DNA of 64,000 bases from Escherichia coli (GTDB lineage Bacteria > Pseudomonadota > Gammaproteobacteria > Enterobacterales > Enterobacteriaceae): the NCBI RefSeq assembly GCF_041248615.1, contig NZ_CP158426.1. One strand, 5' to 3'. Position 1 is the stretch's first letter, and each line of letters starts with the position of its first letter. The position numbers and the translations under genes were made by a program. This document shows, piece after piece, positions 52,617-58,219 of the stretch. The notes below the pieces were generated by a model. That model saw nothing but the letters and a program-made list of their open reading frames with translations. It was not told where the DNA came from and searched no databases.

Positions 52617-52877
52617 ATACAACTCCTCTGTGAATCGGTTTAGTCAGAAGAAGCAAAAAGACACTTTACCGAAGGGTTTAACATTTTTTCGTGATACTCA
52701 TCACCATGACGCAAATGCGTTGCATAAATTTACCCACCAAAAGTGATGCAAATCACATAAATCACTCTTCATTCTGCAGGACTGCATAAAAGATGAGCCG
52801 ATTCAGGCAATGTGATTTGTTGCATGCTGACTATAGTTAACATTGCGCAACATTTTTATAAGGGTACGGAGAATACC

Positions 52878-53690
52878 ATGGCAACAACACAACAATCTGG
52901 ATTTGCACCTGCTGCATCGCCTCTAGCTTCGACCATCGTTCAGACCCTGGACGACGCGATTGTGGCGGGCTTCACCTCTATCCCTTCACAAGGGGATAAC
53001 ATGCCTGCTTACCATGCCAGACCAAAGCAAAGCGATGGCCCACTGCCAGTGGTCATTGTAGTGCAGGAAATTTTTGGCGTGCATGAACATATCCGCGACA
53101 TTTGTCGCCGTCTGGCGCTGGAGGGGTATCTGGCTATCGCACCTGAACTTTACTTCCGCGAAGGCGATCCGAATGATTTTGCCGATATCCCCACGTTACT
53201 TAGCGGTCTGGTAGCAAAAGTGCCTGACTCGCAGGTGCTGGCCGATCTCGATCATGTCGCCAGTTGGGCTTCCCGCAACGGCGGCGATGTTCATCGTTTA
53301 ATGATCACCGGATTCTGCTGGGGTGGACGTATCACCTGGCTGTATGCTGCGCATAACCCGCAACTGAAAGCGGCGGTGGCATGGTACGGCAAACTGACAG
53401 GCGATAAGTCGCTGAATTCACCGAAACAACCTGTTGATATCGCAACCGATCTTAACGCGCCGGTTCTCGGCTTATATGGTGGTCAGGATAACAGCATTCC
53501 GCAGGAGAGCGTTGAAACCATGCGCCAGGCGCTGCGGGCTGCTAATGCGAAAGCAGAGATTATCGTCTACCCGGATGCCGGGCATGCATTCAACGCCGAT
53601 TATCGCCCGAGCTATCATGCCGAATCTGCGAAAGATGGCTGGCAGCGTATGCTGGAGTGGTTTAAGCAGTATGGTGGGAAGCGGAATTAG
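52878..53690 (+). CDS. ysgA: dienelactone hydrolase family protein (carboxymethylenebutenolidase-like)
   Basis: ORF track 52812..53690; ATG at 52878 gives MATTQQSGFAPAASP. Confidence 0.85.
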   Translation: MATTQQSGFAPAASPLASTIVQTLDDAIVAGFTSIPSQGDNMPAYHARPKQSDGPLPVVIVVQEIFGVHEHIRDICRRLALEGYLAIAPELYFREGDPNDFADIPTLLSGLVAKVPDSQVLADLDHVASWASRNGGDVHRLMITGFCWGGRITWLYAAHNPQLKAAVAWYGKLTGDKSLNSPKQPVDIATDLNAPVLGLYGGQDNSIPQESVETMRQALRAANAKAEIIVYPDAGHAFNADYRPSYHAESAKDGWQRMLEWFKQYGGKRN

Positions 53691-54081
53691 TTTCCTCTTA
53701 GTCTATATTTGAGATGGTGAGTGAACGAGTGCGTTTTGCTGCCATCTCTGTCCCCCAAAAAATAATCAGTATGAATTGATTGGAGAGCACGACTCCGCTA
53801 TTTGACCTTAAGAAAGTCGGCAAGTAATAGTCATAAGTGAGTCTCTTCACTGGCAGACACCTTAGAGATTTACCATCAACTCCCATTCTCAAACAAACAT
53901 TAATTATTATCAACACATTCACATTAATTATAAATTATCTCAGACCTTCCTGATAAAAAGATATTAAAGTGAAACATTTTGTTTTTCACATTTTAGTTCA
54001 TCCCTTTTAGGCGTAAATAAAGGTAAAAAATAACAATACTATTTTTCTTTCACAAAAGAATTAACAAAAGGTTTTTCAAGG

Positions 54082-55215
54082 ATGAGTGATATTATTTACC
54101 TGAACATAACCGGAGAACAACAAGGATGTATTTCCTCTCGTTGTGGAACGAGCGCATCAATAGGTAATCGCTGGCAGATTGGCCATGAAGATGAAATCTT
54201 CGCGTTCTCGCTCTCTAATAGTATTACGAATACAGGCAAAGGGTCACAATTGCATGGCCTTAGTTTCTGTAAATTGATTGACAAAAGCTCCCCGTTACTT
54301 ATTAACGCTATTAACAATAACGAGCAGTTGTTCATGGAGTTTGACTTCTATCGGATCAATAGATTTGGTCGATGGGAGAAATATTACAACATTCAACTTC
54401 GCGGCGCGCTCTTATCAGCAATCAATCACCTGTTTACTGAGAACAATCTGGATACAGAAACCATCACTGTCAGTTATGAATATATACTCTCCAGGCATCT
54501 GATTGCTAATACTGAATTTAGTTATTTGGCATTTCCCGATAACTACAACCGTCTGTTTATACCACGGCCAAAAACTAAAGATGATAATGGCCTCAAAACA
54601 CTCAATAGTAAAGCGGTTGGCAGACTGCTTGCTGCTGGCGGCATATACAATGGGAATATCGAAGGATTCAGGGAAACAGCAAACAAGTTGGGAGGAGATG
54701 CACCTGCTGGTTACGATCAAGTTATGGATAACAAAGGGTTACTCATCGCTGGTGCTTCAATAGTTGCTGGAGTTGTTCTGGGAAGAATGAGATTCCCTGA
54801 TTTGGAATCACTTGAGCATTTCGGAGCCAGAGGAGCAGTATCAGGAAGACCATTTAATCCCGACCTTGCCGGTGGTCCAATTGAAAACCTGACGATAGAT
54901 GGCGTAACAATCAACAGGGAAGGTATCGCTATTGTTGAAAAGCATATCTCCAGATTTGATCATGATCCAGCTAATGATGTAATGATTTCAAGGCTAAAGA
55001 AAATAGCAAATAAAGAATTGCTTCCTGAAAAATACGATCTGAACTACTATACTCATGAATGTCGCGAGTATCAGCGTTATTGTAATTTAGGATGGGAAAC
55101 AGGTGAACCGAAAGGTTTAGATGGATATGAATTATGGAATAATGTACATACTGCAACTCTAGAAGACTTTAAAATTAAAGATACTGACTTATTTCATCCG
55201 GATGCAACAAAATGA
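54082..55215 (+). CDS. Hcp (TssD) domain fused to a C-terminal extension of about 210 aa: putative orphan T6SS Hcp-ET effector
   Basis: ATG at 54082 with AAGGA SD; residues 1 to about 150 match the Hcp family (IYLNITGEQQGCI..SIGNRWQIGHEDEIFAFS..LSFCKLIDKSSPLLINA..FYRIN); Gly/Ala-rich linker with a short hydrophobic stretch (LLIAGASIVAGVVLG), then a domain with no motif I can assign. Confidence 0.8.
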   Translation: MSDIIYLNITGEQQGCISSRCGTSASIGNRWQIGHEDEIFAFSLSNSITNTGKGSQLHGLSFCKLIDKSSPLLINAINNNEQLFMEFDFYRINRFGRWEKYYNIQLRGALLSAINHLFTENNLDTETITVSYEYILSRHLIANTEFSYLAFPDNYNRLFIPRPKTKDDNGLKTLNSKAVGRLLAAGGIYNGNIEGFRETANKLGGDAPAGYDQVMDNKGLLIAGASIVAGVVLGRMRFPDLESLEHFGARGAVSGRPFNPDLAGGPIENLTIDGVTINREGIAIVEKHISRFDHDPANDVMISRLKKIANKELLPEKYDLNYYTHECREYQRYCNLGWETGEPKGLDGYELWNNVHTATLEDFKIKDTDLFHPDATK

Positions 55216-55469
55216 CGATTACGATAGTTGAATTTAACGTGCTGAAAGTTATGGCTGAGAAAGATATTGACTGGAGCTGGATGGTGCTGGATCGTACTTT
55301 AGCTATACGAAATATTCCAGGATTTGGCAACGTAGCGAATATCGTAACAAAGCTGGTTAATCATGGGTTGGTTGATATCGTAAATGGTGAGGGCAACTCT
55401 AGACCACGCTACAGAGTTTCTCAATATGGATTGAATCTTATCAAAGAACAACAAGACAACCTCTTCTGA
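55212..55469 (+). CDS. putative cognate immunity protein, copy 1 (85 aa)
   Basis: ATG at 55212 overlaps the toxin stop (ATGA at 55212-55215), implying translational coupling; paralogous to the next ORF. Confidence 0.6.
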   Translation: MTITIVEFNVLKVMAEKDIDWSWMVLDRTLAIRNIPGFGNVANIVTKLVNHGLVDIVNGEGNSRPRYRVSQYGLNLIKEQQDNLF

Positions 55470-55528
55470 TCCAGCCATTACAGGAGCATGATTTACATTG
55501 TGATCTTTCAATAAGATACTCATCAATT

Positions 55529-55789
55529 TTGGTACAGAATATCGTGATCACTAAAAATGAACTTAACGTGCTGAACGTTATGACTGAGAAAGATATAAAC
55601 TGGAACTGGATGAATCTCGATCGCACACTATCCATAAGGCAAATTCCAGGATTCGGGAATGTTGTTAACATTGTTAACAAATTAGCTAACGAAGGTTTGG
55701 TTATTATTGAGGATAGCGGGAATAAGTCTATGCCTCACTACCACGTTAGTGAAAAGGGATACAATCTCGTGCAACGTGAGAATAAATAA
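55529..55789 (+). CDS. putative immunity protein, copy 2 (paralog, 86 aa as drawn)
   Basis: about 60% identical to copy 1 over ~74 aligned residues (by eye), including IPGFGNV.NIV.KL...GLV; begins on TTG (55529) or GTG (55544), no ATG before the conserved core, no obvious SD. Confidence 0.5.
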   Translation: MVQNIVITKNELNVLNVMTEKDINWNWMNLDRTLSIRQIPGFGNVVNIVNKLANEGLVIIEDSGNKSMPHYHVSEKGYNLVQRENK

Positions 55790-55957
55790 CGTAGCGTTGA
55801 TTACTGAACGGAATCACTCAAAACTGTGTTTTGCGAAAAAAACGATTCGGTTATTTCTGCTCCTGAAGATCAGCTTCAATCTGGCACTCATGCAAAATGG
55901 CTTCCAGTGCTGGAAGCCATTATCGTACTGCAATTTACAGTGACTCGTTAATATTCG

Positions 55958-58219
55958 TCATCCCCGACGCAAATTCTGCGCCGCCTGCACCATGTTCGCC
56001 AGTGCCGCGCGGGTTTCTGGCCAGCCGCGCGTTTTCAGGCCACAGTCCGGGTTGACCCACAGACGCTCTGCCGGAATGCGTTTTGCCGCTTTCTTCAGCA
56101 AGGCTTCAATCCATTCTACGCTCGGTACGTTTGGCGAGTGAATGTCATAGACGCCAGGACCGATTTCATTTGGATAATCAAACTCTTCAAACGACTCCAG
56201 CAACTCCATGTCGGAACGCGAGGTTTCGATGGTGATGACGTCTGCGTCCAGCGCCGCAATCGAATCCATGATGTCGTTGAACTCGCAGTAACACATGTGA
56301 GTGTGGATTTGTGTGTCATCTTTCGCCACGGCGGCGTTGATACGGAAAGCCTCCACGCCCCACTGGAGATAGGCATCCCAGTCGCCGCGACGCAGCGGTA
56401 AACCTTCGCGCAGTGCCGGTTCATCAATCTGGATGATGCCAATTCCAGCGGCTTCCAGGTCCGCCACTTCATCACGCAGCGCCAGCGCAATTTGTTTGGC
56501 GATGGTTTCACGGCTGACATCTTCACGCGGGAACGACCAGCAGAGAATAGTCACCGGGCCGGTCAACATCCCTTTCACCGGTTTATCAGTCAGGGATTGC
56601 GCATACTTCGCCCACTCAACGGTAATCGGTGCCGGGCGGCTAACGTCACCAATAACAATCGGTGGCTTCACGCAGCGTGAACCGTAGCTCTGTACCCAAC
56701 CGTTTTGCGTAAAGACAAAACCGTCGAGGTGCTCGCCAAAGTATTCCACCATGTCATTACGCTCGGCCTCGCCATGTACCAGCACATCCAGTCCCAAACG
56801 TTCCTGCTCAACAATGGCCTGCTTGATATGTTCCGCAATGCCCGTGCGGTAGTTATTGGCGTCGAGATTACCCTTTTTAAAATCCAGACGCAGGGTACGA
56901 ATCTCCGTGGTTTGCGGGAAGGAACCAATCGTGGTGGTCGGCCACGCGGGCAGTTTAAAACGCGCACGCTGGGCTTCAGCACGCACTTCATAGACATTCG
57001 CACGCTGACTGTCCTGGGCGGTGATCGCCGCCAGACGCTTTTCTACTGCCGGATTATGAACACGAGTAGAGTGACGACGCGCCTGAATCGGAGCGCTCCA
57101 CTCTGCCAGAGCAGCCGTGTCACCACTGTTCAGCGCATCGCGCAGCAGTGCCAGTTCATGACATTTTTGCAGGGCGAAGGCAAACCAGCTTTTCACTTCT
57201 GCATCAAGACGCGTTTCCACGCTCAGGTCGATGGGGCTGTGCAGCAGTGAGCAGGAAGATGCCACCCACAAATCGCGTTTGCCGACAATGTCCTTAATTT
57301 GCGCATACTTCTCGGTAAGATCGGCGCGCCAGACGTTACGACCATTGATCAGACCCGCAGACAGCAGCCAGTCAGAAGGCAGACGCTTGTGCAGTTCAGC
57401 AACGTCATCTTTACCATGTACAAGATCGACATGCAGACCCTGAACAGGCAGCGCAGTAATCGTGTCGAGATTTGGCGTTACGCCTTCAAAATAGGTGGTC
57501 AGCAGCAGTTTCACCTGTCCCTGGAGCGCGTCGTAAGCGGGTTTGTATGCGTCCAGCCACGCCTGCGGCAGTTCCAGTACCAGCGCGGGTTCATCAATCT
57601 GTACCCACTCAATGCCGCGTTTTGCCAGTTCTGCCAGCACTTGCTGATAAATCGGAAGAATGTCGTTCAGCAGGCTCAGGCGATCAAACTGTTCACCTTT
57701 CACTTTACCCAGCCACAGGTAGGTAACCGGCCCCAGCAGCACAGGTTTCACCTTGTGGCCCAGCGCCAGCGCCTCGTCCACTTCGTCCAGCAGCTGCGTC
57801 CAGGTCAGTTTGAACTGTTGGCCTTTAACGAATTCCGGCACCATGTAGTGATAGTTGGTATTAAACCATTTGGTCATTTCCGCTGCCGCCGCAGGTTCGC
57901 CAGTCGGCGCACGTCCACGACCAATACGGAACAGGGTGTCGATATCTACCGAACCATCTTTGTTCTGATGACGCGCCGGAACGTTACCCAGCAGCAGACT
58001 GGTGGTCAGTACATGATCGTACCAGGCAAAATCGCCCACCGGCAGCAGGTCGATACCCGCTTGCTTTTGTTGATCCCAGTGACGAGCACGCAATTCACGC
58101 CCTACCGCCAGCAGTTCTTCACGCGTGGAGTTCCCCGCCCAATAACTCTCTTGCGCTTTTTTCAGCTCGCGACGCAGGCCAACGCGAGGGAAACCGAGGG
58201 TGTGATTAAGAATTGTCAT
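55958..58219 (-). CDS. metE: cobalamin-independent methionine synthase
   Basis: 753-aa ORF starting [29 protein letters not shown]. Confidence 0.97.

Follow-up and report, generated by a model that had tools for sequence, protein, structure and literature searches.

A probable orphan immunity gene behind an Hcp-toxin/immunity pair in Escherichia coli, with a GTG as its most probable start codon and no Shine-Dalgarno sequence

The window analysed here, 64,000 nucleotides (nt) of the Escherichia coli contig NZ_CP158426.1 (assembly GCF_041248615.1), carries a chromosomal low-GC island between ysgA (52812-53690) and the convergent metE (55958-58219, minus strand). The GC content of the island is 24-47%, against ~55% in the flanks. 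From the sequence and the list of open reading frames (ORFs), it contains three plus-strand genes: an Hcp-toxin fusion gene and, behind it, two small putative immunity genes, copy 1 and copy 2. The subject of this work is copy 2, and in particular the codon at which its translation starts. An earlier note on this DNA had described copy 2 as a paralog with no canonical start codon or ribosome binding site, possibly a decaying orphan. The features concerned are these.

54082-55215, plus strand: Hcp-toxin fusion gene (tssD/Hcp N-terminal domain, linker and C-terminal toxin domain of 'type A'), 377 amino acids (aa), intact.
55212-55469, plus strand: copy 1, presumed cognate immunity gene ('type A'), 85 aa, its ATG overlapping the toxin stop (ATGA), without a Shine-Dalgarno (SD) sequence.
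55470-55543, plus strand: AT-rich spacer of 74 nt without a terminator-like site.
55492-55520, plus strand: sigma-70 promoter-like site, TTTACA-17-GATACT, 9 of 12 matches (a consensus match only).
55529-55531, plus strand: alternative in-frame TTG, giving an 86-aa form (CFT073 c4753 and some gene callers).
55544-55789, plus strand: copy 2, orphan immunity gene ('type B'), 81 aa with a GTG start (PGAP WP_001445370.1, alignments and AlphaFold2 (AF2) model).
55580-55582, plus strand: first in-frame ATG of copy 2, the conserved internal Met13, in helix 1 (alignment and AF2 model).

The ORF of copy 2 spans 55529-55789. The sequence and the ORF list bear out that its only in-frame starts upstream of the first in-frame ATG, at 55580, are TTG 55529 and GTG 55544 (an ATG at 55557 is out of frame). 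They also bear out that the conserved region begins before that ATG: both DNA and protein similarity to copy 1 start at GTG 55544, 12 codons upstream of ATG 55580. GTG is a canonical bacterial start codon, and the claim that copy 2 has none was hence overstated.

Relatives of copy 2 start at the same position. In a 100%-identical genome, RefSeq (PGAP) places the coding sequence at the equivalent of 55544-55789 (WP_001445370.1, 81 aa), and the GTG 55544 start is also annotated in ATCC 25922, NU14, 2012C-4502 and GmF046. Other E. coli strains carry a type-B gene in single copy, with 88% aa identity to copy 2 and 94% nt identity over the body. This gene begins ATG-ATA-ACT where the window has GTG-ATC-ACT, and the single-copy alleles of ws5-3, WL297, 2014C-4423, FDAARGOS_943 and SCPM-O-B-8794 read ATG-AT(A/T/G)-ACT there; BLAST similarity between the copy 2 region and the single-copy allele starts at query base 106, that is, at 55545. 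The homologs of Citrobacter koseri, Citrobacter freundii and Mangrovibacter share this codon pattern and begin M-I-T-(E/D), with ATG at the position aligned with GTG 55544. A scan of the GTDB species representatives with a degenerate family motif returned one locus only, a single-copy E. coli allele that starts M-M-T, again with ATG at this position. A homolog on a metagenome contig (L015) has its ATG start (M-A-M-T) two codons further upstream in the alignment. These alignments show that GTG 55544 occupies the homologous start position of copy 2, and we infer that it is the most probable start of translation.

Some local features of this start were also recorded. The GTG lies inside a palindrome, GTGATCAC (55544-55551), and TGTGATC occurs 45 nt upstream (55499-55505); together they contain two Dam sites (GATC) and could pair into a weak stem that hides the start of copy 2. 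The GTGA overlap at this start is trivial, because codon 2 begins with A in all homologs.

To quantify SD strength we used the energy of the duplex with the anti-SD over the -20 to -4 region. The candidate starts of copy 2 gave -1.5 kcal/mol (TTG), -2.8 kcal/mol (GTG) and +0.4 kcal/mol (ATG 55580), compared with a mean of -1.9 kcal/mol for the island background and -5.4 to -10.3 kcal/mol for housekeeping genes in the window. The candidates cannot be told apart from the background and are far from the housekeeping genes, and therefore none has a recognisable SD, in agreement with what the earlier note had said of TTG 55529 and GTG 55544. The deficiency is nevertheless not special to copy 2, since copy 1 (-3.3 kcal/mol), the Hcp-toxin gene (-3.4 kcal/mol) and all homolog starts (-3.2 to -4.1 kcal/mol) are alike; orphan copies in Citrobacter arrays likewise have no SD. 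The missing SD of copy 2 is thus an inherited family trait and not an acquired one. The suggestion of an unusual start holds only in that copy 2 has GTG where its relatives have ATG; the start is unusual in no other sense.

The arrangement of the cognate genes accounts for this trait. Directly behind a type-A toxin, C. freundii carries an ortholog of copy 1 with the same ATGA overlap, so that the overlap with the toxin stop is 4 nt for type A, in the window and in C. freundii, and 11 nt (ATGATAACTGA) for type B, in the E. coli single-copy alleles and in Mangrovibacter. Genes that overlap an upstream stop codon are normally translated by coupling, and the cognate copies, copy 1 included, are presumably coupled in this way to the toxin gene. 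Because the cognate genes overlap the toxin stop and presumably rely on coupling, an SD was never part of the design of the family. Copy 1 and the cognate homologs resemble other coupled toxin-immunity pairs in having a stop overlap (ATGA or ATGATAACTGA) and no SD. Copy 2 differs from them: it has no overlap, the nearest upstream stop, that of copy 1 (55467-55469), is separated from GTG 55544 by a 74-nt gap, and it cannot couple to the toxin gene.

The partner of copy 2 is found elsewhere in the species. In ws5-3, WL297 and a further locus (L021), the gene behind the type-B toxin gene overlaps it and encodes 81 aa, 88% identical to the product of copy 2. The type-B toxin, present in ~119 genomes, is an Hcp-toxin whose 382 aa end in a diverged tail, and one small gene follows it. 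The small genes co-vary with the toxin tail, type A standing behind toxins that end ...KDTDLFHPDATK and type B behind toxins that end ...GELNDLYHQDALDYDN or similar. The resident toxin of the window has a type-A C-terminus, which in C. freundii pairs with orthologs of copy 1, and no cognate toxin gene lies directly upstream of copy 2, which is preceded by copy 1 and the spacer. At the aa level the two copies are 62% identical, and each has a closer relative in Citrobacter (70% and 79%) than in the other copy; they are therefore not a recent tandem duplication. Judged by sequence comparison, copy 2 is a displaced orphan type-B immunity gene behind a type-A toxin/immunity pair, and the earlier proposal of an orphan immunity gene is supported, its homolog being the single gene that overlaps a variant toxin in other E. 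coli strains. Position and co-variation point to an immunity function for both copies.

Among 5,426 complete E. coli genomes, the island was found in 857, on the chromosome every time; 729 have the two-gene arrangement (copy 1 and copy 2) and ~119 the type-B toxin with the type-B immunity gene alone. About 15 loci out of the 857 carrier genomes were read in detail. Carriers of the two-gene arrangement include both B2 strains, in which hxlB replaces ysgA as the left flank, and non-B2 strains.

Related genes also occur in larger groupings. In Citrobacter, a type-A toxin/immunity pair is followed by arrays that combine the type-B gene with Imm35, and type-B genes are also found in arrays with Colicin_immun family genes. 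At two Citrobacter loci (L009 2401-5238 and L011 1935-3237), three to four unrelated small genes stand behind or beside Hcp-toxin genes, namely an 85-86-aa gene, Imm35 and winged helix-turn-helix (wHTH) genes of type B and of type A; both loci are orphan immunity islands of several genes, with homologs of both window copies. The C. koseri array contains an orphan gene of copy-1 type (L009 4984-5238) that has ATA at the ATG position and is annotated with that start, and it is another orphan of the family with a degraded initiator. In C. koseri, the protein Hcp363 has an unrelated C-terminal domain in place of the toxin domain, and its gene is followed by an unrelated 78-aa gene. The co-variation with the toxin tail, the unrelated 78-aa partner and the immunity arrays are together the signature of polymorphic toxin/immunity cassettes.

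We also examined how copy 2 could be expressed. The scan for terminators found no terminator-like site between copy 1 and copy 2, and because none separates the copies, co-transcription with the toxin operon is likely. The promoter-like site at 55492-55520 would start a transcript near 55527; such sites are about two-fold enriched in the AT-rich DNA of the island (15 against 7.5 expected), which makes this match weak evidence. The fold energy within 30 nt on either side of the GTG is -5.6 kcal/mol, compared with means of -8.4 kcal/mol for the island and -12.4 kcal/mol for the window, and an AU-rich, weakly structured start region permits SD-independent initiation. The earlier idea of expression by read-through from copy 1 is in part tenable. 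Translational read-through is not, as the frames differ and stops occur at 55467, 55512 and 55545, and a fusion of the two copies by stop-codon read-through was rejected on the same grounds (different frames and three stops between); co-transcription remains plausible. A literature search with the CFT073 locus tags c4751-c4753 returned no matches on expression.

The spacer itself was considered as a remnant of a toxin 3' end, as suggested by a colinear 8-mer, AAGATACT, and a stop at the homologous position. This was rejected: local alignments of 55470-55543 with the 3' ends of five toxin genes and with the DNA upstream of two orphans scored as shuffled sequences do (p 0.2-0.6), and blastn-short of the spacer against all related loci gave 10-mers only. 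The spacer also contains an AGGAG motif 1 nt before ATG 55488, with an 8-codon mini-ORF, MIYIVIFQ* (55482-55514), in the frame of copy 1. In GmF046 this ATG is mutated to ATA. The combination of AGGAG and ATG 55488 is probably due to chance, the spacing being too short for a normal SD.

We consider it probable that, jointly, copy 1 is the cognate and coupled immunity gene and copy 2 an orphan of type B that is made from GTG 55544 and gives low-level protection. By comparison, copy 1 (type A) is the presumed partner of the resident toxin, presumably coupled to it through the ATGA overlap, and the type-B gene has lost its coupling in the two-gene arrangement, where it sits 74 nt behind copy 1 with GTG at the position of the ancestral ATG. 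The product of copy 2, of 81 aa, is probably still synthesised from this GTG. Its transcripts would come from the toxin operon, from the weak promoter-like site of the spacer, or from both, and translation would be by inefficient, SD-independent initiation in the AU-rich, weakly structured start region. The output to be expected is low-level synthesis, and such a low level of type-B immunity may give protection from the type-B toxin of the ~119 sampled E. coli lineages.

The state of the gene across genomes bears on this account. The 131 nt of 55470-55600, which comprise the spacer and the start, keep an identity of at least 99% in every one of the 729 two-copy genomes, and the one variant inspected differs at 55490 and not at the start; a special conservation of the start region was nonetheless rejected, for the coding divergence of the island between lineages is only ~1%, which makes the invariance uninformative. 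Between the window and the B2 lineage, copy 2 shows 3 synonymous and 1 non-synonymous changes (omega ~0.08, a value that rests on 4 substitutions only). It is annotated as intact in all but one of the fetched two-copy loci, the exception being the frameshifted allele of C25, and B2 strains with the premature stop W98* in the toxin gene have it intact as well. The suspicion of decay raised in the earlier note is thus not supported, given the intact loci outside C25, the 3:1 pattern between lineages and the at least 99% identity of the start region. On balance, copy 2 looks maintained.

Several points weigh against translation from the GTG and against maintenance. Besides the limits just given and the C25 allele, the GTG, the missing SD and the 74-nt gap together predict weak initiation of copy 2, and gene callers are split between its 86-aa TTG form and its 81-aa GTG form. 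Of the 16 nt at which copy 2 differs from the cognate allele, 8 lie within the first 48, the first 14 codons being the most diverged, and two nearly invariant positions are changed (K11N and A14T); a recombination breakpoint might explain this N-terminal divergence, as might a relaxed constraint on codons that are not translated. Several observations would fit an untranslated relic that lost its expression together with the coupling and the ATG, and looks intact only because the displacement is recent: the SD-less GTG, the gap to the upstream gene, the diverged N-terminal codons, the frameshifted allele, the low divergence that leaves intactness with little statistical weight, and the C. koseri orphan with ATA at its start position. 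We nevertheless judge a relic unlikely. The two-gene arrangement spans deeply separated lineages (B2 with the hxlB flank, others with the ysgA flank), and among the two-copy genomes examined only one lacks an intact ORF for copy 2. The neighbouring toxin gene of B2 strains has gained a stop. The 3:1 pattern and the retention of all the invariant N-terminal residues also argue against it.

The choice between start codons can be weighed more directly. A start at TTG 55529 would lengthen the protein to 86 aa by adding MVQNI at its N-terminus. No in-frame start codon lies between this TTG and the stop before it, it is used for CFT073 c4753 and in many automated calls, and, if the spacer promoter is real, it would be ~0-2 nt from the predicted 5' end of a near-leaderless transcript. 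However, TTG is the rarest start codon, this one has the weaker anti-SD pairing of the two upstream candidates (-1.5 kcal/mol), and PGAP prefers the GTG. None of the homologs has an equivalent of the five extra codons, and in the cognate loci the DNA at this place encodes the toxin C-terminus in another frame. We regard initiation at this TTG as improbable, and initiation at ATG 55580, which would yield a 69-aa protein and make the upstream similarity vestigial, as very improbable. That codon is the sole in-frame ATG candidate, a few database entries are indeed 69 aa long (P0003 and P0008), and the 12 codons upstream of it are relatively diverged. On the other hand, it has no SD (+0.4 kcal/mol), and the corresponding Met13, although nearly invariant, lies within the protein in every homolog, with the start further upstream each time. 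A conserved ATG with an SD at the equivalent of 55580, as envisaged in the earlier note, was accordingly not found in the homologs; the ATG is conserved there as an internal codon without SD. Upstream of Met13, the family-invariant residues E6, N8, V9, L10 and V12 are all kept in copy 2. Finally, the AF2 model from the GTG (pLDDT, the predicted local distance difference test, 94) is a wHTH in which helix 1 covers residues 4-15, so that a start at 55580 would remove this helix from the winged-helix core.

The predicted fold raises another possibility, that both small proteins are MarR-like DNA-binding regulators of the toxin locus and not immunity proteins. This fold matches the winged-helix cores of MarR/RosR proteins, three helices plus a beta-wing (Foldseek E 2.5e-4 to 1e-3; template modelling score normalised by the query, TMq, 0.7-0.83), and NCBI gives many members the product name 'MarR family transcriptional regulator'. 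A MarR family regulator is a protein of ~140 aa in which N- and C-terminal dimerisation helices are added to the wHTH. In contrast, copy 2 has half this size, the 81-85 aa of the two proteins cover ~45% of a MarR protein (score normalised by the target, TMt, 0.44-0.47) and the dimerisation helices are lacking. There is no Pfam or NCBIfam MarR match, even at E<=1, and hence no membership of the sequence family. The genomic context is also that of immunity genes: the genes overlap the stop codon of the toxin gene, their type changes together with the C-terminus of the toxin, the different toxin domain of C. koseri is followed by an unrelated 78-aa gene, and members stand in arrays with Imm35 and Colicin_immun. 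A regulatory role therefore appears to have only a slim chance of being correct, and the NCBI name reflects the wHTH core only.

Natural recombinants of the two copies were observed in draft E. coli assemblies (L022, L023 and L024 2501-2749; P0009). In these, copy 1 and copy 2 are fused at a shared 13-nt stretch, CTGAGAAAGATAT, giving a chimera of copy 1 codons 1-18 and the copy 2 body (copy1(1-18)/copy2(18-81)) without a separate copy 1. The chimera is directly coupled to a toxin 100% identical to that of the window; none was found among the 5,426 complete genomes. If the toxin is active, the chimera implies that the body of copy 2 can neutralise the resident type-A toxin. A broader proposal, which we put forward tentatively and consider possible though doubtful, is that the locus represents an uncharacterised toxin-immunity family, an all-alpha toxin opposed by a minimal winged-helix protein, in which copy 2 would be an actively maintained 'defence-only' gene. 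With its own promoter in the invariant spacer and an SD-less GTG, it would be expressed without the toxin operon, defend against type-B attackers and possibly cross-protect against the resident type-A toxin. The idea of cross-protection comes from the rare recombinants, because they keep an identical toxin with only the chimeric immunity gene.

The toxin itself, a predicted type VI secretion effector, carries an Hcp/TssD domain at its N-terminus (PF05638, E=3e-14, residues 6-135; TIGR03344, E=2.8e-36), and PGAP names the gene tssD in the identical genome. The C-terminal extension of 230 aa is without match to any known toxin family or fold: searches of Pfam, NCBIfam and PDB gave no match for the toxin domain, and its all-alpha model has no structural neighbour. 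The domain appears to be uncharacterised. In Mangrovibacter (L013 1983-3887), the same C-terminal toxin domain and linker are attached to a non-Hcp N-terminal domain (342 aa). The fusion gene is followed there by a type-B-like immunity gene and a Colicin_immun (PF09204) gene, and the locus adjoins TraI/DsbA-like conjugation genes in a region that resembles a conjugative element, which suggests a route for horizontal spread of the cassette.

The W98* stop of the Hcp-toxin gene was found in the B2 strains ATCC 25922 (L002 998-2131), NU14 (L005 443-1576) and C25 (L006 654-1787). In these strains the weapon is lost and both immunity genes are kept, with copy 2 frameshifted in C25. The 95-99% identity class of the island (467 genomes) may be largely of the W98* type. 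In several genomes of Shiga toxin-producing E. coli, the type-B toxin gene is split into a tssD pseudogene and a 'colicin' fragment.

Further observations concern the surroundings of the genes. Across the island, the window differs from B2 strains at 90 places, and 62 of them fall within the 200 nt upstream of the Hcp-toxin start (53900-54100); with the differences so concentrated, the promoter region of the toxin operon is lineage-specific. IS1 insertions lie in or beside the island in some strains (H1, NZ_AP022049.1; L003 75-772), and no known RNA element was found in the island (Rfam, E<=1). Two loci considered as outgroup junctions (P0073/P0074; L017 and L018) were rejected as such, being noisy, indel-rich assemblies of the same two-gene arrangement. 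One more feature lies downstream of copy 2.

55899-55918, strand unassigned: hairpin GGCTTCCAG-TG-CTGGAAGCC, read from the sequence, between the convergent copy 2 and metE.

This hairpin, followed by TTTT on the minus strand, is probably the metE terminator, and the island transcript may also be ended by it; it is absent from the output of the terminator scan.

Similar loci have been described. Hcp-ET effectors of Enterobacteriaceae consist of an Hcp domain with a C-terminal toxin extension, are encoded outside the main type VI secretion system (T6SS) cluster and have one or more small immunity genes next to them; Hcp-ET3-4 of uropathogenic E. coli is reported with several immunity gene copies behind, and five clans of Hcp-ET toxins are distinguished in reviews (PMC6730261, PMC6099711). 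The window resembles these Hcp-ET/ETI loci in having an Hcp-toxin fusion with small immunity genes directly behind; it differs in that its toxin domain matches none of the five clans, as compared through these reviews only. Identity with Hcp-ET1 of O104:H4 or 55989 was rejected, as neither strain is among the best carriers and neither Pfam nor the fold gives an HNH signature. Copy 2 is also comparable to the orphan immunity genes and arrays of T6SS, contact-dependent inhibition (CDI) and Rhs systems, in which immunity is kept without an adjacent cognate toxin, behind a newer pair. Examples are the acquired interbacterial defence (AID) clusters of Bacteroidales (bioRxiv 10.1101/471110), an immunity islet of Salmonella Typhi (PMC7400221) and the orphan Rhs immunities of Serratia (PMC10539506). 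As in those systems, the cognate toxin circulates in other E. coli strains and unrelated immunity arrays are found in Citrobacter. In contrast to them, the window has two genes only, no recognisable toxin 3' fragment upstream and a start changed to GTG.

The feature that drew attention to copy 2 is real but ordinary, and the more interesting leads are peripheral to it: the uncharacterised toxin fold, the loss of the toxin in B2 with immunity kept, and the natural chimeras. For annotation, the correct start of copy 2 is GTG 55544 (81 aa), our most probable start, and not the one behind the database entries of 86 aa (TTG) or 69 aa (ATG); a name as a MarR regulator is likewise to be avoided. For the family, the locus is a clean population-scale case in which replacement of a toxin tip has left an orphan immunity gene (729 against ~119 complete genomes), and it shows the fate of the translation signals of an immunity gene after uncoupling from its toxin.
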